44,648 nt of DNA from an uncultured Candidatus Saccharibacteria bacterium (lineage in GTDB: Bacteria > Patescibacteriota > Minisyncoccia > Phycocordibacterales > XYD1-FULL-46-19): NCBI GenBank assembly GCA_964433715.1, contig CAYSSL010000001.1, positions 1 through 44,648 of the forward strand, written 5' to 3'. The notes beneath the pieces are model-generated. The model was given only the letters and a program-made list of their open reading frames with translations, searched no databases and had not been told where the DNA came from. Made by a program: the position numbers and the translations under genes. Shown here piece by piece: positions 1-39,700 of the stretch. Every line of letters starts with the position of its first letter. Within the stretch, counting starts at the first letter, position 1.

Positions 1-2
1 TG

Positions 3-74
3 TGCCCCTGGCCGGAATCGAACCAGCATCTATCCCTTAGGACGGGACTGTTCTATCCATTGAACTACGGGGGC
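3..74 (-). tRNA. tRNA-Arg (anticodon CCT)
   Basis: The reverse complement folds as a cloverleaf. Acceptor GCCCCCG/CAGGGGC has one C-A mismatch. The D arm is GTTC..GAAC. The anticodon stem GTCCC/GGGAT carries loop GTCCTAA. The T arm is GCTGG-TTCGATT-CCGGC. Confidence 0.85.
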
Positions 75-79
75 AAACT

Positions 80-102
80 AAAAACGGGCGGAACTTCCGC
101 CC
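80..102 (-). terminator. Rho-independent terminator after the glutaredoxin-like gene
   Basis: Stem gggcgg (86-91) pairs with ccgccc (97-102) around a 5-nt loop. An A-run lies on the + side, giving a U-run on the minus transcript. Confidence 0.7.
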
Positions 103-128
103 ATTTTGGCACATTTGGATGGTTTTAT

Positions 129-365
129 CTATAGACCTAGGAGCTCTTTCAATCGATCTTCATCAAAACCAATAACCATTTCATTGTCCACAAAGATTAC
201 CGGAACACCTCGTTGGCCACTTTTTTCTACCATTTCATTAATCCGTGCTGGATTTTCGCTCAAATTAACATCCTCAAAAGCGACATTATTTTCAGTAAAA
301 AATTCTTTTGCCATATGACAAAAATGACAAGTGGAAGTACTATAAATTACTACTTTTTTATCCAT
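129..365 (-). CDS. small glutaredoxin/NrdH-like thiol-disulfide protein
   Basis: 78-aa ORF with an N-terminal CxxC (STCHFC). Its length and the GVPVIFV...G pattern are typical of glutaredoxin-fold proteins. Confidence 0.8.
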   Translation of the reverse strand: MDKKVVIYSTSTCHFCHMAKEFFTENNVAFEDVNLSENPARINEMVEKSGQRGVPVIFVDNEMVIGFDEDRLKELLGL

Positions 366-395
366 AAGCGAAAGAGGCTTAAAATTTTAATTAAT

Positions 396-692
396 TTATT
401 GTATCACACGTTCTAAATACTCCGAAATGTTATCCATTTGGCTTACTTTGTTCCGTTTTTTATAGCCACAGTCCACACATTTATGAGTAATAATAAATTC
501 ATCACCATTTTTTTCTAACTGTTCTGGCTCCATTAGCCCCCCACATTTGGCCGCTCGATCACCGGGGTTTACATCCACATGTTTACTCCATAAACAATGC
601 GGGCAGTGGTTGGTGTAGCCGTCACCTTTTACCGGCTTGTCACAATAGCCACAAACAAAGTCCTCTTTTAAACGTTTGAAGTTTTGAGCCAT
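396..692 (-). CDS. RNHCP-domain zinc-ribbon protein
   Basis: 98-aa ORF with Cys/His clusters (CGYC, NHCPHC, CVDC). The block YTNHCPHCLWSKHVD matches the RNHCP domain signature as I recall it. No obvious SD precedes the ATG. Confidence 0.7.
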   Translation of the reverse strand: MAQNFKRLKEDFVCGYCDKPVKGDGYTNHCPHCLWSKHVDVNPGDRAAKCGGLMEPEQLEKNGDEFIITHKCVDCGYKKRNKVSQMDNISEYLERVIQ

Positions 693-704
693 AAATTTAA
701 ATAG

Positions 705-913
705 TGCGGGTAGGGAATCTCCCGCGACTCAAAACTTTTTCGCCAAAAAGTTTTGGTCTGGGCACCTGCCCGCTCGTGCCTTGCATGGCAGGCGGGCCGG
801 CTCGCGCCAAAATTTTGCTAAATTTCGACTTCGTGCGCTCCGCCGTTCGATTCCCCCTACCCGACGACAAAAACATAGTCCCCTAAAGCTTTGCTTTTGG
901 CTCCTTGTTTTTG
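705..913 (-). other. structured module downstream of tRNA-Gly: conserved trailer, then a GC-rich core bracketed by inverted and direct copies of the tRNA-Gly 3' end
   Basis: 845-863 (gttcgattccccctacccg) is the exact reverse complement of 916-934 inside the tRNA gene. 705-719 (tgcgggtagggaatc) repeats 914-930 in the same orientation with a 2-nt gap. A perfect 11-bp hairpin lies at 730-755. A homologous module sits at 12649-12827. Confidence 0.6.
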
Positions 914-984
914 TGCGGGTAGGGGGAATCGAACCCCCGTCTCAACCTTGGGAAGGTCGTGTCATACCACTAAACTATACCCGC
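914..984 (-). tRNA. tRNA-Gly (anticodon CCC)
   Basis: Reverse complement GCGGGTATAGTTTAGTGGTATGACACGACCTTCCCAAGGTTGAGACGGGGGTTCGATTCCCCCTACCCGCA. The acceptor is GCGGGTA/TACCCGC. The anticodon stem CGACC/GGTTG carries loop TTCCCAA. The T arm is GGGGG-TTCGATT-CCCCC. CCA is not encoded. Confidence 0.9.
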
Positions 985-995
985 GAGCAAAACTT

Positions 996-1391
996 CTACC
1001 AACTAAACAGCCGCTCCAACGCCCCAACCGCCGCAGTAAACCAATTATTAATATCCTCATCACCCTTTACACCACTTGTAGGCTTTTCGGCATCAACCAC
1101 CATTATTACCTTTTCACCAGGCAACAAAACTGAATAGTTTTGTCTAATAACCTCTTCTTCACCGCGCTCGGTTGCCAACCATTTAACCTTATCCTGCAAT
1201 TCTTTTTTTTGTGTCTCTAGTTCACGCAGTTCACTCTCAGCCTGAGTTCGTCCCACTTCAGCCAAACGATTTTTGGCATAAACACCCCAAACTGCCTTAC
1301 TTAAAAACAAGATAAGAACAGCTAAAACAACAAGTGTAATTTTATAAAAGATAGAGCGTTTAATACGCCGGCGACCTTGAAAATCCTGCAT
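996..1391 (-). CDS. FtsB/DivIC-like septum formation initiator (single TM plus coiled coil)
   Basis: 131-aa ORF with a basic N-terminus, one TM helix and a heptad-like region (ESELRELETQKKELQDKVKWL). This architecture is typical of DivIC/FtsB. The assignment rests on architecture only. Confidence 0.5.
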   Translation of the reverse strand: MQDFQGRRRIKRSIFYKITLVVLAVLILFLSKAVWGVYAKNRLAEVGRTQAESELRELETQKKELQDKVKWLATERGEEEVIRQNYSVLLPGEKVIMVVDAEKPTSGVKGDEDINNWFTAAVGALERLFSW

Positions 1392-1413
1392 TGTAAGCCT
1401 ATACTACTACAGT

Positions 1414-1527
1414 ATGTTATATGGACGCAAACAGCAGAAATACATCAGAATCATCGCGATTATTGTTTCTATCCTCACCATTTTGAGTATGATCGCACTG
1501 TATTCTTTCCCCTTCCTATTCCGCTGA
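1414..1527 (+). CDS. candidate 37-aa small membrane protein (not in the ORF track)
   Basis: ATG at 1414 encodes MLYGRKQQKYIRIIAIIVSILTILSMIALYSFPFLFR, a basic N-terminus followed by one hydrophobic helix. It is preceded by TTGAAA(1377-1382)-17 nt-TATACT(1400-1405). There is no SD, so it would be a leaderless mRNA. Its last 12 nt overlap the lepA 3' end. Confidence 0.3.
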   Translation: MLYGRKQQKYIRIIAIIVSILTILSMIALYSFPFLFR

Positions 1528-3315
1528 TTTCATCATCTTTAGAAAGACTTCTTGCGGGATATTAACCTTGCCTATTTTTTGCATCTTCTTTTTGCCTTTT
1601 TTCTGCTTTTCCCGCAACTTCATTTTGCGCGTAATATCCCCACCATACAAATAATCAGTCACATCTTTGCGTAAAGCAGAGATCGTCCGCGAGGCAATAA
1701 TTCGCCCCAACGCTTTACTCTGAATCTTTATATTAATAAGTTGACGGGGAAGAAGTTTTTTAAGTTTATCAGCCGCCTCTTCAGCCTCAATATCTACCCT
1801 CCGTCTAGCAACAACCCTAGAAAAAGCGGCGACGATTTCTTCATTGACCAAAATATCCAACCGCACCACATCGGCCGGTCGTGACTCCCCTAGAATATAA
1901 GAAAAGCTGGCATAACCAGAAGTTACACTTTTTACCTCATCAAAAAAATTGCGCATCAGTTCACGCAACGGCATATGTAAAGTAAGGCTAGTCCGATTAT
2001 CGCCAAAGTTATCCATATCGGCAACTTCTGCTTCGTGTTCGTACAAAAGAGACATTAAACTATTTAAATATTCTAGCGGTAAAATAAGTTTAACCGTGAC
2101 CCAAGTTTCCTTGACCTCTTTACCCTTTAAATCTTCGGGAAAAAGGTGGGGAGAATATATTTTCTCCACTTCACCAGTCTGAACATCAGTAATCTCATAA
2201 CTAATAGTTGGGGTCGCAATAATAAGGGACAGATTAAATTCTCGCCGTAAACGCTCGGTAATAATTTCCAAGTGAAGCATCCCCAAAAAACCACAACGAA
2301 AACCCCGCCCAAGGGCACCCGAAGATTCTTCTTCAAAAGACAGTGAAGCGTCTTCCAGCGCCAGCCTTTCTAAGGCTTGTCGCAACAAAGCAAAGTCATC
2401 CTGACCCTCTGGATAGACACTAGCCCACACCACCGGCGGAGCTGTCTTATACCCTGGTACAGCCGCCAGAGGGTTGGTAGGAGATACCAAAGTATCGCCC
2501 ACCTTTGCTCCGCCGGCCTGCTTAATACCGGTCACAATATAGCCAATTTCTCCGGCAGACACCGTATCTACCGCTGTTTGTAGTGGCGTAAAAACACCAG
2601 CTTCTAATACTGAAAATTTTTCTCCCGAACCAGCCAAAACCAAAGTGTCTCCTTTTTTTAAACTACCATCCAACATTCGGGCATATACAATAACCCCTCG
2701 GTGGGTAGAATAGGAAAAATCAAAAACTAGACCACGGGGACCTTTGGCTTCATATTCAGACACCGGAGGCGGGACGCGTTCAATAATTGCCGACAAGAGA
2801 TCTGTTACCCCCTCGCCAGTTTTTCCAGACACCGCCACAATAAGTTCCCGCTTACAACCTAAAAGTTTTACTACTTCATCTTTAGTTTCTTCCACTCGAG
2901 CACTAGGTAAATCAATTTTATTTATTACCGGTATAATTACCAGATTTTCCGCCCGCGCCATATCAAGTACCGACAAAGTCTGGGCCTGTACTCCTTGTGT
3001 CGCATCAACTAAAAGTAGCACCCCCTCCACCGCCTTAAGGGCCCGCGACACTTCATAAGAAAAATCAATATGCCCCGGAGTATCAATAAGATTGAGGACA
3101 TAGGGTTCATCCCGATAGGAATATTTCATTCGGACGGGTTGCATTTTGATTGTAATCCCCCGCTCCCTTTCAAGATCCATAGAATCAAGGACTTGCTCCT
3201 TCATTTTACGCTTCTCAATAGTAGCGGTTATTTCTAGCATTCTATCAGCCAAGGTTGATTTGCCGTGGTCAATATGAGCAATTATAGAAAAATTTCGTAT
3301 GGCCTTTTGAGTCAT
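1516..3315 (-). CDS. lepA: elongation factor 4 (LepA)
   Basis: 599 aa with GTPase motifs AHIDHGKST, DTPGH and NKID, plus the LepA-specific C-terminal region. Confidence 0.95.
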   Translation of the reverse strand: MTQKAIRNFSIIAHIDHGKSTLADRMLEITATIEKRKMKEQVLDSMDLERERGITIKMQPVRMKYSYRDEPYVLNLIDTPGHIDFSYEVSRALKAVEGVLLLVDATQGVQAQTLSVLDMARAENLVIIPVINKIDLPSARVEETKDEVVKLLGCKRELIVAVSGKTGEGVTDLLSAIIERVPPPVSEYEAKGPRGLVFDFSYSTHRGVIVYARMLDGSLKKGDTLVLAGSGEKFSVLEAGVFTPLQTAVDTVSAGEIGYIVTGIKQAGGAKVGDTLVSPTNPLAAVPGYKTAPPVVWASVYPEGQDDFALLRQALERLALEDASLSFEEESSGALGRGFRCGFLGMLHLEIITERLRREFNLSLIIATPTISYEITDVQTGEVEKIYSPHLFPEDLKGKEVKETWVTVKLILPLEYLNSLMSLLYEHEAEVADMDNFGDNRTSLTLHMPLRELMRNFFDEVKSVTSGYASFSYILGESRPADVVRLDILVNEEIVAAFSRVVARRRVDIEAEEAADKLKKLLPRQLINIKIQSKALGRIIASRTISALRKDVTDYLYGGDITRKMKLREKQKKGKKKMQKIGKVNIPQEVFLKMMKSAE

Positions 3316-3351
3316 AGGCTTAATACTAACTTAATATAGCCGTAGAGCAAG

Positions 3352-5028
3352 CTAAATTTCCTCTTCCCCCACCCTAATAGGTTCACGCCAAACTCGAGCC
3401 GACAAAGCATTAATAAATTCAGAAAGTTCAACATTTTTAAAGATAAACAACAAAGCGCCAGCAGAAACTAAGCCAAACATCCCAGCGCCAAAACCTTGAA
3501 GAAAAACTCCGGAATAAGTTTCTTGATTTATATATGGCAAAAGAATATTTAATGAATGGTAAGCAGTAAAACCAGCCATTACCGCCGCCGCGAAAGATTG
3601 AAACGCCGAGCGATAAACCAATGGATCAAATGGCGCAAAATCTCGGCCGAAAATTAGCCAATATATAAGAGCATTAACCGTAATACCAAAAGAATAAGCC
3701 AAGGGTAACATTAAAATACTAGTACCCGGAACCATATCTACTCTCAAGAGTATTTCAATAAAATAACGGAATATTAAAATGTGATCAAAAAGATAAGTGA
3801 AAATAAAAGCCGCTAAAATAATAACCGTAGAAGAAAATATATTTACAAACAAAGGCACTTTGGTTCTTCCGCTAGCATAATAAGCACGGACAAACAGCTG
3901 AACAAAACTCTGAGCCACAACCGACACCACAAACAAAGATAGTGCGGCGGCCACCAAACGAGTATCGGACCAGCTAAAATTTCCTGAACCTAAAATAACC
4001 CGCACAATTTGAGCACGCAAAATAATAAACAGGGTCATTGCCGGCAAAGACCAAAACAAAATATGTCTAATGGCTGTCTCAATTTTGCCAACAAATTTTT
4101 TTGTTTCTCCTTTTGAAAACAAGGCGGCTAAAGTAGGAAAAGCGGCCACCGAATAACTCACCCCGATAATAATAAGGGGTACCGACTGCAAATTAAAAGC
4201 AAAATTAAATACCGCAATAGAACCAACAGCCATCAGAGATCCGATCCCAACCAAAACCGTCAACGATATCTGGTGAACAGCCAAGGTTAAAGTTCGAGGC
4301 AAAGAAACAACGACAACCTCTTTAATTTCCTTCCAGTCTATGCCCCAAGTTGGTCGAGGCATCAATCCCAGCCGATAGACACTAGGAATCTGTATCGCTA
4401 GATGAAAGATAGCGCCAATCACCACCCCCCACGCCAATCCCGCCAGACCATATAATGGGTACAACCACAAAATACCAATAATGAGCCCAATGTTGTACAA
4501 CACCGGACTCAAGGTATAAGCCAAAAATTTACGATAACTTTGGGTAATAGCTCCCAAAAAATTTGATAGTCCAAGCAGAAGTGGCGACAACAACAAGATC
4601 CGAGATAAATATACCAAATCAGCCTGTGCGGATGACGAAAAGCCTTTAGCTATAAAAGGAGCCAAAAGGGGCATAAGCCAAAAAGCCAATAGTCCAACCA
4701 ATAAAGTGGCGAGAGAAAATACCGTGGCAATACTTGAAAGAAATTTTTCTACTTGGTGTGTCCCTTCTTTTTCTTTGTACCTTAAAATGAAAGGAATCAA
4801 AACGGTTACCGATACTATTGAGGCAAAAGTAACATAAATAAGATCGGGAATACGAAAAGCAGTATAGTAAATATCCAGTTCAGCCCCAGCCCCAAAAGTA
4901 GAGGCCAGCAGTCTATCTCTAACCAATGCCAAAACCTGAGCCGCCAGAGACGATAGACCCAAAAGAAAAGCAGCCTGATGAAGGCCACTCCATTCTTTAT
5001 AAAGAAGTGAGATTAGTCTGGTGACCAC
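3352..5028 (-). CDS. murJ: lipid II flippase MurJ/MviN family
   Basis: 558-aa polytopic membrane protein. The N-terminal region (AAQVLALVRDRLLASTFGAG..LDIYYTAFRIPDL) is typical of MurJ. Confidence 0.8.
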   Translation of the reverse strand: MVTRLISLLYKEWSGLHQAAFLLGLSSLAAQVLALVRDRLLASTFGAGAELDIYYTAFRIPDLIYVTFASIVSVTVLIPFILRYKEKEGTHQVEKFLSSIATVFSLATLLVGLLAFWLMPLLAPFIAKGFSSSAQADLVYLSRILLLSPLLLGLSNFLGAITQSYRKFLAYTLSPVLYNIGLIIGILWLYPLYGLAGLAWGVVIGAIFHLAIQIPSVYRLGLMPRPTWGIDWKEIKEVVVVSLPRTLTLAVHQISLTVLVGIGSLMAVGSIAVFNFAFNLQSVPLIIIGVSYSVAAFPTLAALFSKGETKKFVGKIETAIRHILFWSLPAMTLFIILRAQIVRVILGSGNFSWSDTRLVAAALSLFVVSVVAQSFVQLFVRAYYASGRTKVPLFVNIFSSTVIILAAFIFTYLFDHILIFRYFIEILLRVDMVPGTSILMLPLAYSFGITVNALIYWLIFGRDFAPFDPLVYRSAFQSFAAAVMAGFTAYHSLNILLPYINQETYSGVFLQGFGAGMFGLVSAGALLFIFKNVELSEFINALSARVWREPIRVGEEEI

Positions 5029-5042
5029 GGTATAATAACCCT

Positions 5043-7508
5043 TTAATTTTCAGTCTGATCAGTTTCCTCTTCACCTGTCTTAGCGGCAGCATCCTCCTCT
5101 GGTGTCTCCGCTTCAGTCGTCTTGGCTGGTCCAATACCAGATAGGGCGTCACGACCAGCACGAAGGTTGCGAACAATCTGAGCCACCTCGGCATTATCGG
5201 GATTAAACTTAGCAATCAACTCAAATTGCTCCAATGCCTTGGCTGTTAAACCCTGAGCATCATAAGCTAAACCTAAAAAGTAAGAAGCGTTGGCATTAAG
5301 CCCATTAGGACTGAGGGTTTGCACTTTTTTCATCGCCTGAATTGACCCCTCATAGTCGCCGGCGCGATAACGCAAGAAACCTAGTTGGAAAAACAAGCTC
5401 GGATCATTTGGCATCGTAGCTACAGCCTTTTCTAGTCGTTCAATCGCAGCCATAGTACCAGACCCCTCAAGATCTAGCTGAGTCAGCAATAAAATAGAAG
5501 AGGTATAATTGGTTTTTATTGCCAAAGCTTGCTCTAGGTAGTTGCGCGCACTATTAAACTTGCTTTGACTAATTTCTAGTCGCGCCAAAGCCAACAAGAT
5601 CTCAGGATTATTAGGGTACTCTTTTAGAGTTGCCTGATAAATACCAAGGGCCTGATCATAAGCTCTAGGAATTTTAAGATTGGACAGATATTCATACACA
5701 CCGCCATGAGTCATGTGGTTAGTATAATCGGCCGGATTAAGACGCACCGCTTCGCCCGCTGCCCCAATTGCGACAGTTACAATATTTTGCAATAAAGGTT
5801 GAGCTGTTTCTTTGTCTACTTCAGACGAAGACAAAAGACCGTTCATTTCCCTAATTTTGTTTTCAGCTAAAGCCCGATAATAAAGAGGGTCGCCAGAATT
5901 TAAGTTTATAGACTTTACTAAAAGATTGTTGGCATTAGTAAAGTTACCAAGAGACAATTCGTTTACCGCCTTTTGATAAGTCACCACTGACCAAAAACGC
6001 TGGATCAACAGATAGCCACCAGCAATAGTAACTATTAGTAGTAACACCAACACCAAGAGGGCGGCAAAATAGTTTCTAGGGTTAGAATGTAATTTTATCT
6101 CTCTAATCGGCACAATTTTACTAGCAGACAAAGTGGCAATAAAAATTCCAGACATAACAAACAACATCGGAAGGCCAATTGAATCAGGAGTATAGATTAT
6201 GGACATTACCCAAAAATAAACCATTCCCACAAACGACAGGGTGATCAAAAACTGACTCAATGGGTCAGTTGACCAAATACGGAAAGCTTTGACAGCAACA
6301 TACAGCAACGAACCAGCCAAAAACAACCAAGCTAATATACCCAATATCCCAGTGGTAACAGCAAAAGTGGGCAATATTCCGACCGCATCTGCAAAATTAA
6401 CATTCCAGTACTGCAATTCGTTAATCAATCTTGGTTTATGCACCGCCCAAGCGTTAGAAAAATTACTTGGACCAATACCAGTGAGAGGGTCTTTCATTAA
6501 AACTTCTTTGGCCACCGCTCCAGTACTAGACCAGCTTGGTCGAGCCTCCAAAAAAGAAATGTTTAAAGTAGAATAAGCACTGTTTAGTTTTTCTGCCAAA
6601 AGTCCACCCTGTCGACCCAAAATCAAAAACAAAAGAGCCACCAAAACTACAAAAAATGATGCTCTAAATACTTTTTGCCCGCCAAGAAACCCTTGAGGAC
6701 TAACTCCATTCCCCCTCAATTCTCGAGAACTTACCGTAATACCATAAACAAAAGTTAAAAGCGCCACCAAGCCAACCACCACCCAGCCGGCGATAAAATT
6801 AGTGAAAGACATCATCAACAAAGACAGAACAAGAGAGGTGATGGAAAGGCGTTTTAAGATAACACTGTCCCCTGTCGCCGATAATTCCAACATTAAAAGC
6901 GAAACAATAGAGGTAAAACCAAAAAACACGCTCATTTCAAACCATTTACCAATCAGACTTTGGGGTAAAAAATTAAATATAGAGGTCGTAATCAAACCAC
7001 CAACTGCAAATATAACAATCTGATAAACCGCCAAAACTATTGAGGACAGAGATATGACAAGATATAAATTAAATATCTTCTTCCGACTATCAAAGAGAGT
7101 GGCAACCAAGAAAAATGAAATGGCTAAAGCAATAATAGAAAAAGCTGTCCCCGATTGATACAAGGGACCAACTAAAGAGTAGTAAGGATTTACCGAAAAT
7201 ATGCCCGAAATAACAAACGACAGTGGAACCAAAGCTAGGGCTAACATCGGCAACGTCCAAGGTATTTTTATTTCACCTTCTTGGAGACGACCGACTAGCC
7301 ACAAGGCAATTGTGACGACCAGCAAACTAAGTAAAAAGAACTTTTTACTTACATCTGGTGCAAGACCTATCATCCAAAAAGAAACGAGGGGAAGGACAAT
7401 AATACTCGCAAACTGGACCCAATAAGCCGCCATGTCGGCCGTAATAAAAGAAGCTCTCTTTTCCGTCAACAACGTTCGACCAGTGGACATATTTTTTACT
7501 ATGGACAT
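5043..7508 (-). CDS. O-antigen ligase (Wzy_C)-like polytopic membrane protein with C-terminal TPR repeats
   Basis: 821 aa. About 500 aa have many TM helices. A soluble tail follows with repeated A/Y/L TPR-like units (e.g. YYRALAENK, ALGIYQATLKEYPNNPE, FFQLGFLRYRAGDYEGS). Confidence 0.65.
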   Translation of the reverse strand: MSIVKNMSTGRTLLTEKRASFITADMAAYWVQFASIIVLPLVSFWMIGLAPDVSKKFFLLSLLVVTIALWLVGRLQEGEIKIPWTLPMLALALVPLSFVISGIFSVNPYYSLVGPLYQSGTAFSIIALAISFFLVATLFDSRKKIFNLYLVISLSSIVLAVYQIVIFAVGGLITTSIFNFLPQSLIGKWFEMSVFFGFTSIVSLLMLELSATGDSVILKRLSITSLVLSLLMMSFTNFIAGWVVVGLVALLTFVYGITVSSRELRGNGVSPQGFLGGQKVFRASFFVVLVALLFLILGRQGGLLAEKLNSAYSTLNISFLEARPSWSSTGAVAKEVLMKDPLTGIGPSNFSNAWAVHKPRLINELQYWNVNFADAVGILPTFAVTTGILGILAWLFLAGSLLYVAVKAFRIWSTDPLSQFLITLSFVGMVYFWVMSIIYTPDSIGLPMLFVMSGIFIATLSASKIVPIREIKLHSNPRNYFAALLVLVLLLIVTIAGGYLLIQRFWSVVTYQKAVNELSLGNFTNANNLLVKSINLNSGDPLYYRALAENKIREMNGLLSSSEVDKETAQPLLQNIVTVAIGAAGEAVRLNPADYTNHMTHGGVYEYLSNLKIPRAYDQALGIYQATLKEYPNNPEILLALARLEISQSKFNSARNYLEQALAIKTNYTSSILLLTQLDLEGSGTMAAIERLEKAVATMPNDPSLFFQLGFLRYRAGDYEGSIQAMKKVQTLSPNGLNANASYFLGLAYDAQGLTAKALEQFELIAKFNPDNAEVAQIVRNLRAGRDALSGIGPAKTTEAETPEEDAAAKTGEEETDQTEN

Positions 7509-7840: not shown

Positions 7841-7848
7841 ATATTTTT

Positions 7849-8272
7849 GTCTCCTGTCTATAAGCCGAATTCTGTATCCACCATAAGTGGACGACGATCA
7901 TTTATCTGGGATAACTGTTACCAGCTACCTCAAGCGGCACAAACCAAACTAAAAGTTTGGAGTACGGCCTTGCACTTAGATAGGTATTTAGCCGTTTCAA
8001 TCTCTAGGTTTCCCTAAAGCTTCACCCCGAAGGGTGCCCTCGTTTCTCAACTTGGGCGTCACTGCTCGCAACCCTCAGATTACTCTGGACGGGTGTTACC
8101 CGCTACCATGCTGCCCTGTGGAATAAAAAATTCAAAATATTACAGACACCAACCGTTGTCCTGAATCTGTTATATCACTAAACTTTAAACTCTTTATTCC
8201 ACAGGGCAAGTGTTCGGACTTTCCTCTATTTACGTAAATCAATACATAAACAGCGACCATCCAACAGGAGAC
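7849..8272 (-). ncRNA. rnpB: RNase P RNA
   Basis: The reverse complement carries GAGGAAAGTCCG (8215-8226, CR-I), ACAGAATTCGGCTTA (7861-7875, CR-V) and GGGTGAAGC..GGGAAAC. The P1 candidate pairs GTCTCCTGT (8264-8272) with ACAGGAGAC (7849-7857). The end coordinates are approximate. Confidence 0.85.
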
Positions 8273-8298
8273 TTCTCAAATTATAACACTTTACCAAC

Positions 8299-8333
8299 AA
8301 AAAAACAACCAAGATAGCCTTGGTTGTTTTTTT
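8299..8333. terminator. bidirectional terminator after nrdJ
   Basis: caaccaag (8306-8313) pairs with cttggttg (8319-8326), extended by A5/T5 runs on both sides. Confidence 0.75.
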
Positions 8334-8341
8334 AGACACCC

Positions 8342-10654
8342 TTAAGCGGAAGCAGATTTTGAAGTAGCATCGGCGGGGATATCTACCTCACATGTTCCCC
8401 CAGCACAAGCTAGTTCCTTCTTAACTTCTGTCTCATCATGTTTTTCGTAGCTCATAATCTTGGAAAAATCCATATCCGAAAATCCTTTGAGCATCTCATT
8501 ATAACGAGTCTCATCAATCTCTTCATATGGTGCAAGTTGATAAACGTGTTCAGAGCGAGGCAAGAAAGACAGACCACCAATCATATCCCAGTTTTCATAC
8601 AACCAATTGGCTACCACTATCCATTCCCCCTCACCAACTGAAATAGTAACAGATGGATTGTGCTCGGTATAAGCAGTTTTAACCATTTTCCAAAATTCCA
8701 ATTGGTCTAAAGCTGATACATCGTCTTTAAAAGTACTATTATCGGGCGCCTTCACCGGAAATTCCAAAACATAAGTTGTGGCATTATCCACCGACTGCCC
8801 CACCTCTGGATAATAAGGCACACCTTGGTCTTTTAACATCTTAAATAGCGAGTCGGTAGCTGAAATACGAATACGTCTAATATAGTAGCCAGAGTGCCGA
8901 GGATGCATACCAGATGAGGCATCAACTGTTTGTGACACTGTCCCAGACGGCTTAATACAAGTAATAGAAGTGGATTCATTTACCCCAAAACGCTTGGCAT
9001 ATTCACGGTTTATTTCAATAGATCTTTCTCTTAGCTTGTTCAACATCTCAGCGTTGCGCACAGCCGGACAATCCCACATTCCAGTAATAGACACCCCGAG
9101 TAAGCGTTCTTCCTCACAGTTTTGGCGCCATTCGTCTGACAAATATTTAAACTTGGTCAAAGTTGACTGATAAGTACCGAGGATTGTTGCAATCCGGATT
9201 TTCCTGAGTAGCGATTCCTCATTGTCGTCCGCCCGAGCTACCACTTCAGACAAGTTACAAAACTGTTTAGAGCGCAAGATAATCTCACCACAAGGATTGG
9301 TCCCAAACTGATCAATATGATTGGAAGATATTTTTTGACGGCGGGCTGGCAAAGTAGTCTTTAGACCCCCTCGGTTAAAGATACCTCGCTCACCTGTGCC
9401 AGCTTGCACCAAAGATGTCCATTCAGTTAAAAATTGGGAAGCGGTTGGTTTTTCGGTATAAACTGCCGAGTTGTTGGCTAGGCTTCTCTGGGGGTCAGTA
9501 ATCCAAAATAAACCTTTTTTAGCATCACGAATATCCTGATCATCTATGTCTGACAAGGAAATAAGGGCACTGCGACGCACTCCACCGGCCACCACAATTT
9601 CCCCAATTTTACAGATAATGTCATGAGCATCTAGGTTGGAAATACGTTTACCTTGGCGCCGCAAAACGCGCTCGCGCGCAAAAGCCAATAATTGACGAAG
9701 AGGCTCAGGACCCGAAGATTTACCTCCCATAGTCTTTAAACGGGCACCGGCTGGGCGCAACTGTGATAAATCAAAGTCTATATCTTTACCTTCATACCAA
9801 GTCTTAAGGCCAAGGGTAAGAGCATTGCACCAACCCTCTTTGGAATCATCAACAATCAAGGTGGGCAATTTCTCTCCCGTCTGGCGCTTAATAATTGGCA
9901 ACTGTTGGATATTCCAACTCTCGGCCGCAAAACCAGCCCCCGTACCGCACATAGATACGTACATAATCTCCGCAAAATCTTCCAACTTGGTTGGAGCAAT
10001 AAATGAACAGTTATAAGCACAAACATTAGTAGAGCGAGCGGCTTTGCCAGCAAATTGCAACAACCTCATAGAAGGCATAGCCTCCTGTTTCAAAATTGCC
10101 TGTCGCACCTCCTCGTATTCACCCTCAGACAATTTCTCGCCAAGATTTTCCTTCATAAAGTCCATATAGCGACCAACGGTCTCAATCCATGTCTCACGCC
10201 GATTTTCTTCTTCTATCCAATTAGCATAAGTCCGATAGTATACAAACTCGCCCAAAGGATTTTTAAAATACTGCTTACTGTTATGGACCAATTCCTTTAC
10301 ATGCTCAGGAATATCACCATGTTCACGTCTTGCTTCAGTCCGTCGTTCCCGATAAAGAATATAAGCTTTGGCGACAGTGGAAAACTGGCTCACAATAAGA
10401 CTTTTTTCAACCGCATCTTGTATCTCCTCAATCCCAGGTATATAGTCTTTTCCCGCCAAAGAAGCCGCCTTGGTACCCAATTCAGTAGACACCATTTCTG
10501 CCACCTTGAGAGAAGACGCTTCATCACCCTCACCTGTTGCCTTCATCGCTTTCCATATGGCATTACTGATTTTAGACAAATCAAACGGTACGATTGTCCC
10601 GTCCCGTTTGATAACATTTGATATCACAAATTTTTTGGGTGACTCTGGTGACAT
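8342..10654 (-). CDS. nrdJ: class II (adenosylcobalamin-dependent) ribonucleotide reductase with N-terminal ATP-cone
   Basis: 770 aa with an ATP-cone start (VIKRDGTIVPFDLSKISNAI), the active-site block TNPCGEI and a C-terminal Cys pair (CAGGTC). It is a single-chain enzyme with no nrdB or nrdG partner in the window. Confidence 0.85.
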   Translation of the reverse strand: MSPESPKKFVISNVIKRDGTIVPFDLSKISNAIWKAMKATGEGDEASSLKVAEMVSTELGTKAASLAGKDYIPGIEEIQDAVEKSLIVSQFSTVAKAYILYRERRTEARREHGDIPEHVKELVHNSKQYFKNPLGEFVYYRTYANWIEEENRRETWIETVGRYMDFMKENLGEKLSEGEYEEVRQAILKQEAMPSMRLLQFAGKAARSTNVCAYNCSFIAPTKLEDFAEIMYVSMCGTGAGFAAESWNIQQLPIIKRQTGEKLPTLIVDDSKEGWCNALTLGLKTWYEGKDIDFDLSQLRPAGARLKTMGGKSSGPEPLRQLLAFARERVLRRQGKRISNLDAHDIICKIGEIVVAGGVRRSALISLSDIDDQDIRDAKKGLFWITDPQRSLANNSAVYTEKPTASQFLTEWTSLVQAGTGERGIFNRGGLKTTLPARRQKISSNHIDQFGTNPCGEIILRSKQFCNLSEVVARADDNEESLLRKIRIATILGTYQSTLTKFKYLSDEWRQNCEEERLLGVSITGMWDCPAVRNAEMLNKLRERSIEINREYAKRFGVNESTSITCIKPSGTVSQTVDASSGMHPRHSGYYIRRIRISATDSLFKMLKDQGVPYYPEVGQSVDNATTYVLEFPVKAPDNSTFKDDVSALDQLEFWKMVKTAYTEHNPSVTISVGEGEWIVVANWLYENWDMIGGLSFLPRSEHVYQLAPYEEIDETRYNEMLKGFSDMDFSKIMSYEKHDETEVKKELACAGGTCEVDIPADATSKSASA

Positions 10655-10792
10655 AATAAATATTGAGGATAAAAATTGTTAATTGGTACTGGCTATTATA
10701 GTCCCCAGCGGCCAACCCGCCTAGATTTTTAGGGGATAAGTCTAGGTTAAAAACTATTTAAAAAACACTATAAAAAAAGTTTCAATAGAGAC

Positions 10793-12197: not shown

Positions 12198-12551
12198 CTA
12201 AGGATACATCTCGCCCCGAACCTTCTCGAGCTCAGCAATGACCGCTGGATCAACGATCTTCTGGAAGCGCGGAAACTTCTTGCCATCTTTCTCAACATCT
12301 TCCATCCACATCTCAAGAGGACGGTTATCGAAGCATGGGATACCAAGATTTTTTGAAGCTTTGTAAACACCTGCTTCGTACAAAGGACGGTAGACAAGAA
12401 AGTGAGCCTCACCGGGACGAGCATCATCCTCCGTATGAAAGCCGACCCCCACCACTTCGTAGGCGTAGTTGTTCACCGGCCCGTTCGGATCATGCTTGTA
12501 ATGATAGTAAAAGCCTGACTCCGGCACTCGTTGTGGTATAGGTAATGACAT
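12198..12551 (-). CDS. DUF1653-like small protein
   Basis: 117 aa. The pattern YYHYKHD....YAYEVVGVGFHTE......VYRPLY resembles the DUF1653 signature. The gene is visibly GC-richer than its surroundings (32/60 G+C at 12201-12260 by hand count). Confidence 0.6.
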   Translation of the reverse strand: MSLPIPQRVPESGFYYHYKHDPNGPVNNYAYEVVGVGFHTEDDARPGEAHFLVYRPLYEAGVYKASKNLGIPCFDNRPLEMWMEDVEKDGKKFPRFQKIVDPAVIAELEKVRGEMYP

Positions 12552-12648
12552 ATGTTTTTCCTTTTGTTTGTTTCTCTGACAATCTTAACTTAAATGCCTG
12601 ATATTGAGAAATTTGAATTCTCAACATGTATCCGACAAAAAAGACTGT

Positions 12649-12827
12649 TGGCGGAGGCGGAGGGATTCGGTCAGGAATATTTTTCTCGCCGTCGCTCGAA
12701 AATTTTCACGACCCTGCCTCGGCAACGACCGCTACTGCGGTCGGCTTCGCGCCTGCGGCTTTCAAATCCCTCCGCCTCATCGCAAAATATAGTCGACCAA
12801 AGGCTTTGCTTTGGTTTCCTTATTTTG
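12649..12827 (-). other. structured module downstream of tRNA-Ser: conserved trailer, then a GC-rich core bracketed by inverted and direct (CCA-bearing) copies of the tRNA-Ser 3' end
   Basis: The reverse complement of 12649-12669 is CGAATCCCTCCGCCTCCGCCA, i.e. the tRNA-Ser 3' end plus discriminator plus CCA. 12761-12778 (ttcaaatccctccgcctc) is a 17/18 inverted copy of the T-loop/acceptor 3' strand. The trailer 12779-12827 is homologous to 864-913. Confidence 0.6.
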
Positions 12828-12914
12828 CGGAGGCGGAGGGATTCGAACCCTCGAAGGGGTTGCCCCCTTACACGCTTTCCAAGCGTGCGCACTAGACCAC
12901 TATGCGACGCCTCC
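12828..12914 (-). tRNA. tRNA-Ser (anticodon GGA)
   Basis: The reverse complement begins GGAGGCGTCGCATAGTGG. The anticodon stem CACGC/GCGTG carries loop TTGGAAA. A long variable arm (GGGGGCAACCCC) is present. The T arm is GAGGG-TTCGAAT-CCCTC and the acceptor 3' strand is CGCCTCC plus G. The gene is followed by CAAAA, so CCA is not encoded. Confidence 0.9.
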
Positions 12915-12993: not shown

Positions 12994-13872
12994 TTAAGAG
13001 TTGGGAAGACCGGGGTCACAACTCTTGGGACTAAAATCTACCAAATTTACAAATATCACCAACAAAACTGTCGCCATAAACAATGACGGGCCAAACATCC
13101 CATCCCAAATAAAAGCAAAGAAAAAGGATATTAGTAGGGGTAAAGTAACCGCATGGAGAGTAAGGCGATAAGCCTCGCCAAAACGCACCCGCCGGCCAAT
13201 GATTTTTTGTGCCAAAAATAGTAGCACCCAAGCCAAAAAGGCGACTACCGCTAGAGGCAACAATAGGAAAAAAAGTAAAAACATAAAAAGAATAAAAATG
13301 GACAACACCAAGACTGGAGCGACCATCACATACCACGGACGTACAGCATTAAAAAATCCAGCTATTTTAGCTTCAGTCAAAGTAAAATCCATATCCTCAT
13401 CATAAGGTAATATTTTTATCGTACCCCGACTATTGTCTGGTCCAACCAAACCATCCTTAGCCAAAAGAACAAAGGCTTTTTTAGCACGATAGACCTCTAA
13501 AGTGGCCGGGCTAGCTGTATCTATTACCACCAAGTGTTCAAATTGGAAATCCCCCATCACCTTATTATCATTAGTCCAGCCTTTGGGAATAGGAATAATC
13601 ACTTCATCCTTAATATTTTTTTGAAGTTCACCAGCTGCCACCCGAAGCTCAAGCGTATCCGGAAAAGACTCCATAATACTGTTTTCCATCTGCCACAAAC
13701 CAGCATTTATTTTAGGAACCACCGCAATCGCAAACAAAACCGAGCTGACCAAAGCAATAACCGCCGCTAATTTAAAATAATAGCTAACAGAATAACCAAA
13801 GGTTTGACTAAAGATGCCTCGGTAAAAGGTTGGGCTATAAATACTATTTCTTAAATCTTGGAAAAAGTTCAT
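12994..13872 (-). CDS. polytopic membrane protein (possibly DUF1189-like)
   Basis: 292 aa with one N-terminal TM helix, a soluble middle part and several C-terminal TM helices. The family name is a weak recollection. The ORF itself looks solid. Confidence 0.55.
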   Translation of the reverse strand: MNFFQDLRNSIYSPTFYRGIFSQTFGYSVSYYFKLAAVIALVSSVLFAIAVVPKINAGLWQMENSIMESFPDTLELRVAAGELQKNIKDEVIIPIPKGWTNDNKVMGDFQFEHLVVIDTASPATLEVYRAKKAFVLLAKDGLVGPDNSRGTIKILPYDEDMDFTLTEAKIAGFFNAVRPWYVMVAPVLVLSIFILFMFLLFFLLLPLAVVAFLAWVLLFLAQKIIGRRVRFGEAYRLTLHAVTLPLLISFFFAFIWDGMFGPSLFMATVLLVIFVNLVDFSPKSCDPGLPNS

Positions 13873-36750: not shown

Positions 36751-39700
36751 TTATCTACTTTTTAATGTATTTAGTGCTTTTGAAAATTTAGCAAAAACGC
36801 CCCGAAAAGCATGCGATGTACTTTGAAGTTTTCCTAAAAATGCCTGGTGTCCCTGTTGTCCAGCATAACTACTGATTGTACTATACCCAATCGAAACAGC
36901 TTGGCCGTCTGCTTTGATGTAATTATTAGGGATCGGTTTACCATATCCGGGATCAACCCCTCTTGCGTTGCCATTCCAAGGAAGTCGTGCTCCAGAGTTA
37001 ATAATAAGACTACTAACAAAATTATTTGAATTGTAACCTTTTCTGGCAAAGGCATCATATTTTGCATTATCTCCATACCTATCATACTGATCCATAATAT
37101 TATTTATAAACGCCGTGTCTGAAAGCCCATCCGGTCTTTGTATTTCAGACCTTTGTTTTAAATATCCAATCTGCGGGGAAACAGAATACCCATTATCAAC
37201 CACAGAACGGTCAGACGGAGCATCAATTGCTCTTTCTAAATTTCCATTATTTCCCGAGTAAGCACCAACTGTCCAATTACTTGGCATTGTTTTAAAATTA
37301 GAAAGATCATCTGGTGTCACCAACAGAAAGACGTGCGTCCCGATCGATTTTTTTTCTATGGCTTTTGAAAATATTTCCACCTTCTCTCCAGTTGGATCAA
37401 ATAAAATCAGCGGATTATTCCTCCCATAACTGTAAAAATTAAACTGCTGTGGGTCCTTAAGGAATTGTTCGGGATTATCTCTTGACGCAGGATCTTGAGA
37501 TATCCATCTTCCAACATCTTGATTATAATATCTAGCTCCAGCATACGTTAGATTAGACCCTCGATCAAATTCATGTCCGGTAAATTTGTGAATTTCGTCA
37601 TTAATTAATGATTGATCAATTTTTAGTGAACCATATGGGTAATAGTCCAAAGTTTGAACTACTGATCCACTACCGTTCGTGACTAGATTTGTAGAATTAA
37701 GATGGTCAGTATGAACATAATAAGGAGTGGTAGTGCTGTTTTGGGTGTGGAGGGTGGCGACCAGCCGATCATCAGCGTAGATATGTTTATCAATTGTGGT
37801 ACCACCAGTCAGATCGTAATAGGGCGAGATATAGAGTGTTTTGGGACCACCAATACTTTGCTGAGAAATACGTGTCCCTTCGTTGTCATATTCATAAGTG
37901 GTAGTAGTGGCACCGGTCACACTTTTTATTAACCGATTATTATAATCCCAAGTATAAGTAGCACTAGGAGCGGTCAACATATTGCCGTTTTTGTCGTATG
38001 TGTAAGTAGAAGAAGCAATAGAGGTTGCCGCTTGGGGAGAAGTATAATCGACAGCACTATAACCATAGACACCAGCTGGCCCCTTTAAAATATTACCAGT
38101 TGGGCCATAAATAAAATCTTGAGAATATAAAGTTGAGCTGGCGCTCACCGCCACAGCTTTGGTCAAACGATAAAGGTCGTCATAAGTGTAGGAAACAGTC
38201 TTGGCTAATAGATTAGGAGAGGTATCAATGATTTTAGTAATATTACCAACTGGATCATATTCATAATTAACTAATTGATAATTGACATTATCTTTTTTGG
38301 TCATTTTCGTCTGCAGCCGATAACTTTTAGCTTGATCAAAGATAAACATATTTTTTATACCGTCAGCATTTTGTTGATAAACTGAAAGGCCGTGTGGTCC
38401 ATAATCAAAATTAGACACAATTGGTATAATTGCGGAACTATTAAACACATCGCGACGTGATACTTTTTCTACTTTTCCCGCTCTATTATATTTATATAAA
38501 ATTTCACTATTATCAGGTAAACGAAGCGATATTATATTACCAGCCAAATCGTAGGCATTTACCGTAGTATAGGAAGAAAGGTTATAAATTTTCTTGTCCA
38601 CCCGCACTTCACCTCGTGGAGTATATTCATAATATTTTGACAGACCAACAATTGCCACCTTACACAACCGCCCGACGCCATTGATACAATTATCATAAGT
38701 ATATCTTACTTCTGGATTAGTTTGACCAGTGTAATCTTCTATCAATGGTCGATTTAAACCATCATAGAAATAATTTACCGTCTGACCAAGCGGGTCTTTT
38801 CGCGACACCAAATTACTATTATCATCGTAAGAGTAAGACCAAATACCAAAAGTCGTATCGGCAGCTTGATGTAAGTCTTGAGCCGACAAACGCCGACCAA
38901 GATTGTCATAAGTAAAATCACGAAGATTATTTAAGGCATCAATTATCCTGATTAAATTTCCACTAGAATTGTAATAATATCTAGTGTGGTAAAAACCATT
39001 GCCATATTTTTCATCAACCAAAATCAGTCGACCATAAGCATCGCGTCCATATTTTTTTATTTTACCCAGAGGGTCAGTAACAGTTGTCACCCAATCGGTA
39101 TAATCATAATTAGTTGATCCAAAAATATTAGTGCTTGATTTAGGTCGACCTAGAGCATCATATGTATACTCAGTCTGAAGACTAGTCGGAATAGACTCCT
39201 GTAGATAGTTAGATCCCCCACTAGGATATGGCAATGAATTAGAACTAATCTGGCCTTGGCTATTATAAGAAATCACAGATACTGCATATTCATTAGCATT
39301 TTCCATGCTGTGTCGTTCTTGTATTGGGCGACCAAGCCCATCAAAATAACTGTAGATCTCGGTAAATAAATCGGGGAGTAAAAATTTCTTGACCCGTACC
39401 AATCGGGGCATAATGTCGTCCCGATAAGATGTTTCTTCCGTCACCACCGCGGGGGCCGAACCAGCCTGCTCCTTTTCAGTCAAAACCCGCCCTAAACCAT
39501 CATAAATTTTTATTTTAGAAAAATTATTAGGATCAGTTTCTTTAGTTGGTTGCCCAATAACATAGTTATATTCAAACAAATTTGTTTGACCGAGAGGATT
39601 AATAATTTTGATGGGGTATAAATAAAATTCATCATATAAATAAGTGCTGGCGTAACCACGCCCATCGGCGGTTTTTTCTACTAATCCCAAATTGTTGTAA

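Follow-up and report, generated by a model that had tools for sequence, protein, structure and literature searches.

Prophages, integrative and conjugative elements (ICEs) and islands that target tRNA genes through a tyrosine integrase, as well as integrase-less cis-mobilizable elements (CIMEs), insert into the segment between the T-loop and the 3' end of the gene, supply it with a replacement 3' end and displace the original one as a direct repeat, leaving the tRNA intact; occupied and empty sites are found among relatives, and elements accrete in tandem at the same tRNA. Integron attC cassettes recombine as folded single strands; their recombination site is an imperfect palindrome in which the unpaired features are conserved and the terminal hairpin varies, and they have flanking direct core sites with an inverse core site inside, and build arrays via repeated insertion. 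In CTXphi, an integrative mobile element that exploits Xer (IMEX), the sites attP1 and attP2 are oppositely oriented, with about 90 bp between them, and form a 150-nt forked hairpin, in which XerC exchanges one strand (PMC3089051). In this work, we analyzed a 44.6-kb stretch of DNA (contig CAYSSL010000001.1, positions 1-44,648; hereafter the window) in which the tRNA-Ser(GGA) gene has a 3' end that recurs downstream of the gene itself. We consider it probable that this end was displaced by a non-coding module of about 160 nt (12670-12827), which would belong to a family of miniature elements mobilised in trans in Vogelbacteria-like members of the Candidate Phyla Radiation (CPR). The modules share with the tRNA-gene integrative elements all of the features listed above, from the insertion segment to the tandem accretion. 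Unlike them, they measure only about 160-190 nt, hold neither an open reading frame (ORF) nor an integrase, contain an internal inverted copy of their target, and have closely related cores at four tRNA species with precisely matched arms.

The tRNA-Ser(GGA) gene (12828-12914, minus strand), called by ARAGORN and by Rfam (RF00005, 58 bits), is intact. On the minus strand it ends in ...GGTTCGAATCCCTCCGCCTCCG, with CAAAATAAGG past the discriminator G73; an earlier note on this DNA was thus right that the gene does not encode its CCA. Positions 54-73 (12828-12847) constitute the proximal direct arm, A. All the parts that follow are read on the minus strand. Directly 3' of the gene come a C and AAAATAAGG; with C74 begins a linker hairpin (12779-12827) made of an outer A/T stem (CAAAAUA / UAUUUUG), an internal loop that is conserved (AAGGA...GACUAU) and an inner hairpin that varies (CCAAAG-CAAAGC-CUUUGG); the whole is backed by homologous linkers at other tRNAs and by compensatory stem changes. 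The inverted arm, A' (GAGGCGGAGGGAUUUGAA, 12761-12778), complements tRNA positions 54-71; its 17/18 match to the window tRNA, already reported in the earlier note, is accompanied by a 14/14 match to the distal arm and an 18/18 match to the tRNA-Ser of contig JAUPVZ010000019.1. Next come two core hairpins. H2 (12714-12760; GCCG-CAG-GCGCGAAGCC-(GACCGC AGUA GCGGUC)-GUUGCCGAGGC) includes the GACCGC-AGTA-GCGGTC hairpin noticed previously and is supported by a covarying stem and a covariance-model search; H3 (12670-12713; GGGUCGUG...UUUUCGAGCGACGGCGAGAAAA...CCUGACC) is supported by single-fold and alignment-fold predictions and compensatory pairs, and its closing GGUCG..GUGACC is common to this module and to those at the tRNA-Gly genes of the loci L180 and L185, described below. 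The distal direct arm (12649-12669) repeats tRNA positions 56-73 followed by CCA, the reverse complement of this stretch being CGAATCCCTCCGCCTCCGCCA. The recurrence of the tRNA end together with G-CCA was the central claim of the earlier note, and it holds as an exact direct repeat of 19 nt (C56-C74), with a start-to-start spacing of 176 nt. A' lies 97 nt from the distal arm, with which it can form a perfect 14-bp stem, and 51 nt from the proximal arm (17-18 bp), and the folds support both pairings. The T6 run reported near the CCA is present as well (12637-12642, read from the sequence), although it begins 6 nt after the CCA instead of 7; by analogy with the tRNA-Phe module of L180, which has a canonical terminator past its distal arm, it is possibly the remnant of an ancestral tRNA terminator.

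Against the whole window, the direct and the inverted Ser copies have blastn-short E values of 4e-5 and 0.011, respectively, and the inverted copy at a second gene, tRNA-Gly(CCC), one of 9e-6; finding both arms within 210 nt downstream of two tRNAs is far beyond chance. This second gene (914-984, minus strand; ARAGORN, Rfam) bears a module at 702-913 on the same strand, recognised from repeats, folds, alignment, covariance model and trailer homology. It comprises C74 and linker (864-913), an A' with 19/19 complementarity to tRNA-Gly (845-863), H2 (797-845), an extra hairpin with H3 (720-796) and the distal arm GATTCCC--TACCCGCA-CTA (702-719). The earlier note had correctly seen this last copy and the CTA behind it; the copy has a 2-nt deletion relative to the tRNA. 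After both tRNAs there is a linker of about 48 nt (CAAAAUAAGGAAACCAAAGCAAAGCCUUUGGUCGACUAUAUUUUGCG at Ser, CAAAAACAAGGAGCCAAAAGCAAAGCUUUAGGGGACUAUGUUUUUGUCG at Gly) whose outer stem is compensated between the two, and the linker motif occurs at these two places only, versus 0 expected. Past the linker the parts follow one order, namely inverted arm, GC-rich structured core and direct arm, and both modules fold far more stably than shuffled controls (z = -6.7 and -6.1). Judged by sequence, the two modules are homologous. The Ser module is not an assembly artefact, since it recurs in JAUPVZ010000019.1, where it is nearly base-for-base alike up to the start of the distal arm, and since related modules occur in independent ENA, JGI and NCBI contigs.

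The origin of the distal arm was revealed by empty sites in related genomes. No linker, A' or distal arm is present at the tRNA-Gly and tRNA-Arg genes of loci L176, L178/L179, L182 and L183. The encoded ends at the empty Gly and Arg sites read ...ACCCGCA-CCA-TGGCTCAAAA (L183 Gly), ...GGGGCA-CCA (L183 Arg), ...GGGGGCA-CCA (L176 Arg) and ...CCCGCA-CCC-TTAATTTATGGCTG (L178 Gly), that is, three CCA and one CCC. Moreover, the distal arm and trailer of the window Gly module (GATTCCC--TACCCGCA-CTA-TTTAAATTTATGGCTC) are collinear with the tRNA end and trailer of the empty sites of L178 and L183 up to the start codon of the RNHCP gene. From the empty sites and this collinearity it follows that the module is an insertion; at the level of sequence comparison, they show the distal arm to be the displaced ancestral 3' end. 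These results support the first of two readings offered in the earlier note, in which a small insertion that restores the tRNA had pushed the old end away, and we conclude from the aligned ends that this clade ancestrally had a CCA, or a decayed CCN, encoded in the gene. In L183, the CCA of the empty tRNA-Gly shares bases with the ATG of RNHCP, the gene downstream (CCATGG, L183 12393-12400), and any insertion there must preserve the RNHCP start too.

The CCA after the Ser distal arm is then most plausibly, by analogy with Gly and Arg, the old gene-encoded CCA of the displaced tRNA end. CCA follows the distal arm in just one of nine modules, the window Ser module, the others having CTA, CCG, TAA, CTG or decayed ends that follow the local ancestral trailer; hence CCA is not among the module's conserved features. 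By itself this CCA is ordinary, and it is no evidence for reverse transcription or tRNA mimicry. The distal arm does have, on the plus strand, the format that the earlier note had likened to a retroelement primer-binding site (PBS), i.e. a perfect 21-nt complement of CCA-tailed tRNA-Ser, as in retroviruses and long terminal repeat (LTR) elements; the PBS interpretation itself was not supported. Unlike an 18-nt PBS, the arm begins at position 56/57 and not 59 and includes A58, it is tRNA-sense and lies directly downstream of its own tRNA gene, its CCA is not conserved, and there is no LTR, nor a reverse transcriptase among the window ORFs scanned.

Further loci were reached via homologues of the flanking proteins DUF1189 and LepA, which gave nine more distinct loci; exact-protein look-ups of the window neighbour genes had returned almost nothing, and the DUF1189 homologue search gave just three relatives. 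At each locus, inverted and direct copies of the last 22 nt of every tRNA were sought within 450 nt downstream. In total, nine modules were found in five lineages at Ser, Gly, Arg and Phe tRNA genes. They lie at tRNA-Ser and tRNA-Gly in the window; at tRNA-Ser in JAUPVZ010000019.1 (L151) and in L157; at tRNA-Gly, tRNA-Arg (two tandem modules) and tRNA-Phe in L180/L181, which are two independent samples; and at tRNA-Gly in L185. Modules were absent from both tRNAs of L176, of L178/L179 and of L183, from the seven tRNAs of L182 (JAIOOX010000002.1) and from the single one of L152. The LepA identities to the window of module-bearing lineages (100, 75 and 71%) are interleaved with those of module-free ones (83, 81, 76 and 74%). 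Two of the module-free loci carry other sequences behind their tRNAs. In L182, the tRNA-Ser(GGA) keeps an armless linker homologue (CAAATTAAGGAGCCCGCTCTAGGCGGGCGACTATAATTTGCG, L182 721-765) with a compensated inner hairpin and no recognisable inverted or distal arm, which may be a decayed or partly deleted module; in addition, the same trailer, CACTTCGACAAGCTYAAT, follows tRNA-Gly and tRNA-Phe (12373-12400 and 13470-13500) and may be a scar or else represent another family of tRNA-end elements. In L152 (4212-5605), which is more distantly related (DUF1189 38% identical), a module-free tRNA-Ser(GGA) precedes three copies of ATTCCCGCCA; past these repeats and on the opposite strand lies a large gene for a serine recombinase (Resolvase, Recombinase and Zn_ribbon domains), which is apparently split in two ORFs; this locus may represent a different element using the same tRNA.

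All modules conform to one plan: an inserted unit of about 160-190 nt, without ORF, in the order A, linker hairpin (24-50 nt), A', hairpins H2 and H3 (about 70-125 nt together) and displaced A. A' covers the T-loop, the 3' strand of the T-stem and the 3' strand of the acceptor stem, complementing tRNA positions 53/54-73. It fits the local tRNA in 9/9 modules and tracks even single-nucleotide differences between orthologous tRNAs. In six of them it is uninterrupted and perfect over 17-21 nt (17/17, 18/18, 19/19, 20/20, 21/21 and, for JAUPVZ Ser, 18/18), in L157 and L185 it consists of two perfect halves with a hairpin inserted between them, and only 11 nt of it are left in the second L180 Arg module. 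Distal arms, in turn, are deleted or truncated in 5/9 (window Gly, JAUPVZ Ser, L180 Gly, first L180 Arg and L180 Phe). The direct repeat matches exactly over 12-19 nt at eight of the nine modules and over 8 nt in the truncated JAUPVZ arm, and the tRNAs of module-bearing genes score as normal. The complement of T54 or G53 is always the last base of A', and every distal arm starts with G57 or C56, which puts the duplication's left junction inside the T-loop.

Homologous linkers follow the window Gly, L180 Gly and Arg and L182 Ser genes, and A' starts 48-49 nt after the tRNA in all five modules of the AAGGAG type. The core of the window Gly module is 0.86 identical to that of L180 Arg versus 0.63 to that of its ortholog L180 Gly, and the window Ser core is closest to L180 Gly (0.72); these identities imply that one subtype occurs at different tRNAs and that different subtypes occur at one orthologous tRNA, both arms being matched to the nearby tRNA each time. 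Tandem arrangements are also found: L180 Arg holds two different modules, L180 Gly and L185 Gly keep partial second copies, and in L185 a 49-nt direct repeat consists of A, linker and half of A'. As far as sequence can tell, repeated insertion at one site is indicated. These data bear on the proposal that local template switching at a quasi-palindromic terminator hairpin copied the tRNA 3' end backwards as A', the rest being local duplication. Such a process would fit an A' that is always a perfect complement of the adjacent tRNA, the near-continuous long palindrome that A' forms with the linker, and the L180 Phe linker, which is a canonical terminator of A-tract, GC hairpin and T-tract with a palindrome of about 33 bp. 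Likewise, the window Ser module has G57 in its two direct copies but an A' still complementary to A57; the direct repeats have changed in concert, which suggests ongoing conversion between them. We nonetheless regard this origin as very unlikely: linker and H2/H3 core are homologous across tRNA genes and genomes, as the window Gly and L180 Arg modules illustrate, and both are missing from the empty sites, so that the non-arm sequence came from elsewhere. A' might still be tailored by template switching, either while the module inserts or afterwards.

A consensus fold was derived from an alignment of four modules. In it, tRNA positions 53/54-73 pair with A' in a hairpin of about 90 nt (H1) closed by the linker, which has an A/T-rich stem, an internal loop that is conserved (AAGGAG / GACUAU) and an inner hairpin that is variable and covaries; H2 follows as GCCGGAGCGCACGAAGUC-(stem, AGYA loop, stem)-GGCGCGAGGC, and H3 comes next. 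Of 63 predicted pairs, 33 keep pairing via double changes. Across the four modules, H2 has conserved flanks and a conserved AGYA loop, 87.9% of its cells are paired and seven pairs show double changes, whereas slid controls were paired at 33-47% and 0/500 shuffles reached the observed score. A covariance model of H2 matched only tRNA-adjacent modules in 214 kb of related DNA. The same structures could be taken as a sign of a functional, co-transcribed RNA, in which A', core and A(CCA) would form a tRNA-like minihelix acting as substrate or decoy of RNase P, the CCA-adding enzyme or seryl-tRNA synthetase, or as the PBS of a retroelement. Besides the covarying hairpins and the stability of the folds relative to shuffled controls, the 14-bp A':A helix of the window Ser module leading into G-CCA speaks for it, as does the somewhat better folding of the tRNA-sense strand in 5/8 modules. 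We give this explanation very little credence. Distal arms decay in five of the nine modules whereas A' matches the local tRNA in all nine, CCA ends only one distal arm, close relatives differ in whether they have modules, tandem copies exist, and the window ORFs scanned include no reverse transcriptase. ARAGORN, and Rfam at E <= 5, found no tRNA-like, tmRNA, ribozyme or riboswitch family in the modules, the non-tRNA matches being generic hairpins far under gathering scores. The second reading of the earlier note, according to which the arm derives from, mimics or pairs with mature tRNA, fails on these same grounds; that note had held that it would be refuted by relatives whose tRNA-Ser has an encoded CCA and no module, together with a lack of detectable RNA from the module. 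Relatives with such empty sites were found for tRNA-Gly and tRNA-Arg, though none was recovered for tRNA-Ser(GGA), and these sites also weaken the functional RNA explanation. It was correct, in turn, in stating that neither of its readings accounts for the inverted arm, which is the genuinely unusual feature of these modules.

The relative in JAUPVZ010000019.1 points to a possible further event at the distal arm. Positions 1-7439 of this contig are 99% identical to window positions 20100-12662, a block with the GroES/EL, LemA, M48 peptidase, DUF1189 and tRNA-Ser genes and the module, and the block stops inside the distal arm, at tRNA position 63/64, 7 nt past the left junction of the duplication. 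Beyond the breakpoint, identity is about 65-74% and the genes differ (a methyltransferase and an 80-aa ORF in JAUPVZ, DUF1653 in the window); the second stretch compared was window 7899-10688 versus L151 9838-12637. This mosaic suggests either a recent exchange between divergent Vogelbacteria-like genomes with its breakpoint at the arm, or a chimeric contig of a metagenome-assembled genome (MAG). The T-loop of the JAUPVZ tRNA-Ser is TTCAAAT, fully matched by its A', and the distal arm (L151 7432-7465) is rearranged to CAAATCCC-ATTTG-AATCCCTCTCTCATTAG, with a small CAAAT / ATTTG hairpin and a second AATCCC copy, which has the look of a scar left in the T-loop region by strand switching or recombination.

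The variable cargo past the distal arm raises the question of whether the modules are the attL-attR remnants of larger elements, left after the interior of an integrase-bearing prophage or island was deleted. Elements with a tyrosine integrase are classically recognised by direct repeats of a tRNA 3' end beginning in the T-loop, and in L152 the large serine recombinase gene adjoins tRNA-Ser(GGA). An origin as scars is unlikely in our opinion. First, independent deletions would not converge on one compact plan of about 160-190 nt in nine modules at four tRNA species in five lineages, nor on the equal linker length of the five AAGGAG-type modules and on conserved, covarying hairpins. In addition, the inverted arm is foreign to ordinary attP, attL or attR sites. 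Besides, the cargo is not bounded by another arm copy, a further copy past the distal arm having been sought and not found; a 5' fragment of tRNA-Ser, the mark of a large island, was not found elsewhere in the window either.

We favor instead a miniature element mobilised in trans, because the order of parts matches that of a folded single-stranded hairpin integrated by one strand exchange. The element would insert into the segment from T-loop to 3' end, with a crossover in the T-loop at about position 56/57; positions 56/57-74 of the tRNA would be replaced by a new copy, with the old end left downstream. A' would pair with a copy of A, so that the folded single strand becomes a duplex replica of the target, and a site-specific recombinase encoded elsewhere would recognise mainly the universally conserved T-loop, with A' as the second strand of the attachment site. 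The closest parallel is CTXphi, with XerCD and dif (PMC3089051): here, too, two opposed target-like sites lie about 90-100 nt apart in a hairpin of about 135-150 nt that replicates the target, the parts run, once integrated, from direct site through element segment, inverted site and loop to direct site, and the recombinase is not encoded by the element. The parallel is one of layout, a role of single-stranded DNA or of Xer in the modules being putative. Unlike CTXphi, the modules target a tRNA gene and not dif, with no evident Xer-binding motif and no Xer gene among the window ORFs scanned, the "genome" between their sites is a 24-50-nt hairpin, and their arms vary with the target. With integron attC cassettes the modules share the traits given at the outset, from the imperfect palindrome to the arrays. 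They differ from attC sites, as their stem consists of 17-21 bp of tRNA sequence versus 7-bp R boxes and is perfect, with no obvious extrahelical bases; the arms ATCGAAC / GTTCGAT break RYYYAAC / GTTRRRY at position 4, the T-loop GTTCGAW misfitting GTTRRRY, and there is no attI, IntI or cassette ORF.

Several observations weigh against the trans-mobilised element. First, Pfam found no recombinase, reverse transcriptase, integrase or transposase in the window (30 ORFs, the 1997-aa ORF at 36751-42744 and short ORFs being left out), and no recombinase could be linked to the modules. Second, neither a free or circular form nor an autonomous relative turned up in the genome collection, among the matches listed, or in metagenome and viral scans. 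A loose linker pattern gave chance matches in the genome collection, the only true match among those listed being JAUPVZ010000019.1; a stricter one gave 18 matches in metagenomes, all of them unrelated CCAAAG..CTTTGG hairpins; and viral sequences, scanned for both linker and H2 motif, gave no true match and hence no phage-borne or autonomous relative. Third, no empty Ser(GGA) site was recovered among the loci examined, so that the ancestral CCA of this tRNA rests on analogy and on the CCG of L157. Fourth, folding energies and G:U counts have no consistent strand asymmetry and suit RNA, single-stranded DNA and cruciform alike. In addition, the L185 49-nt repeat and the armless linker at L182 Ser call for additional steps, for instance a tandem insertion with a later deletion. 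Finally, a recombinase that accepts Ser, Gly, Arg and Phe arms would have to read mainly the conserved T-loop, and the mechanism leaves unexplained how A' and the replacement A come to match a new tRNA.

This last point is where a different mechanism would have more to offer. The modules might be programmable, nucleic-acid-guided homing elements, or their A' might be copied from the target at each insertion, an explanation that we put forward only tentatively. In the first version, A' would be a guide of about 20 nt, as RNA or folded single-stranded DNA, that pairs with the T-loop/acceptor strand and sets the insertion site of an enzyme. In the second, the target would serve as template for A', through snap-back or template-switch synthesis with the terminator-like linker hairpin as its priming site. 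Either version would explain why one core subtype is found at Gly, Arg and Ser with nucleotide-matched arms.

Other families of small elements have also been compared with the modules. MITEs (miniature inverted-repeat transposable elements) and casposon-type elements are likewise small or non-autonomous, lie next to tRNA 3' ends and have target duplications (14-15 bp in casposons). Unlike those of MITEs, the module ends CAAAATAAGG.. and ..TTCCTGACC are by inspection not inverted copies of each other; the inverted repeat of the modules runs between an internal segment and the flanking target, their duplication measures 17-19 nt (49 in L185), and no Cas1 or transposase is present. On the features listed throughout this text, we set aside an ordinary MITE, a casposon, the hairpin ends of IS200/IS605, the bridge RNA of IS110, the guide pairing of group I or II introns, a split or permuted tRNA, a tmRNA or tRNA-like gene and a PBS or retroelement.

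As for the surroundings, the genes of the window are housekeeping ones (LepA, MurJ, class II ribonucleotide reductase, DsbA/VKOR, GroEL/ES, RNase J, a UvrD-like helicase, BipA and transketolase), and its closest named LepA proteins are those of Candidatus Vogelbacteria (Paceibacterota, CPR), with 75-81% identity. A third tRNA gene, tRNA-Arg(CCT) at 2-74 (ARAGORN, Rfam), touches the contig edge, and past its discriminator only CA can be read, the bases that start the linker in other modules. Promoter and terminator scans stayed at chance level. The 1997-aa ORF (minus strand) lies in a stretch of lower GC (about 37%). The RNase P RNA, of bacterial class A (7845-8272, minus strand), has 428 nt versus a model of 367 positions, and its score of 103.6, barely above the gathering threshold of 100 bits, suggests lineage-specific insertions.

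Full-text literature searches found no description of such modules, and to our knowledge no non-coding tRNA-end modules of about 170 nt have been known. The family appears to be an undescribed kind of tRNA-targeting integrative DNA with an unusual, target-mirroring arm. If the modules move as folded hairpins in trans, they would extend the single-strand recombination of CTXphi and integrons to tRNA targets, and at the smallest element size yet. Should the arms be guides, or copies made from the target, they would embody a new targeting principle, and a non-coding element of about 170 nt would have a new way to choose and rewrite its target in the ultra-small genomes of the CPR. For the cells that carry them, module-bearing tRNA genes go from an encoded CCA to a reliance on the CCA-adding enzyme, and long palindromes come to overlap essential single-copy tRNA genes. 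Furthermore, the modules mark recombination breakpoints between otherwise divergent genomes, which is of relevance to MAG assembly and to the comparative genomics of the CPR.

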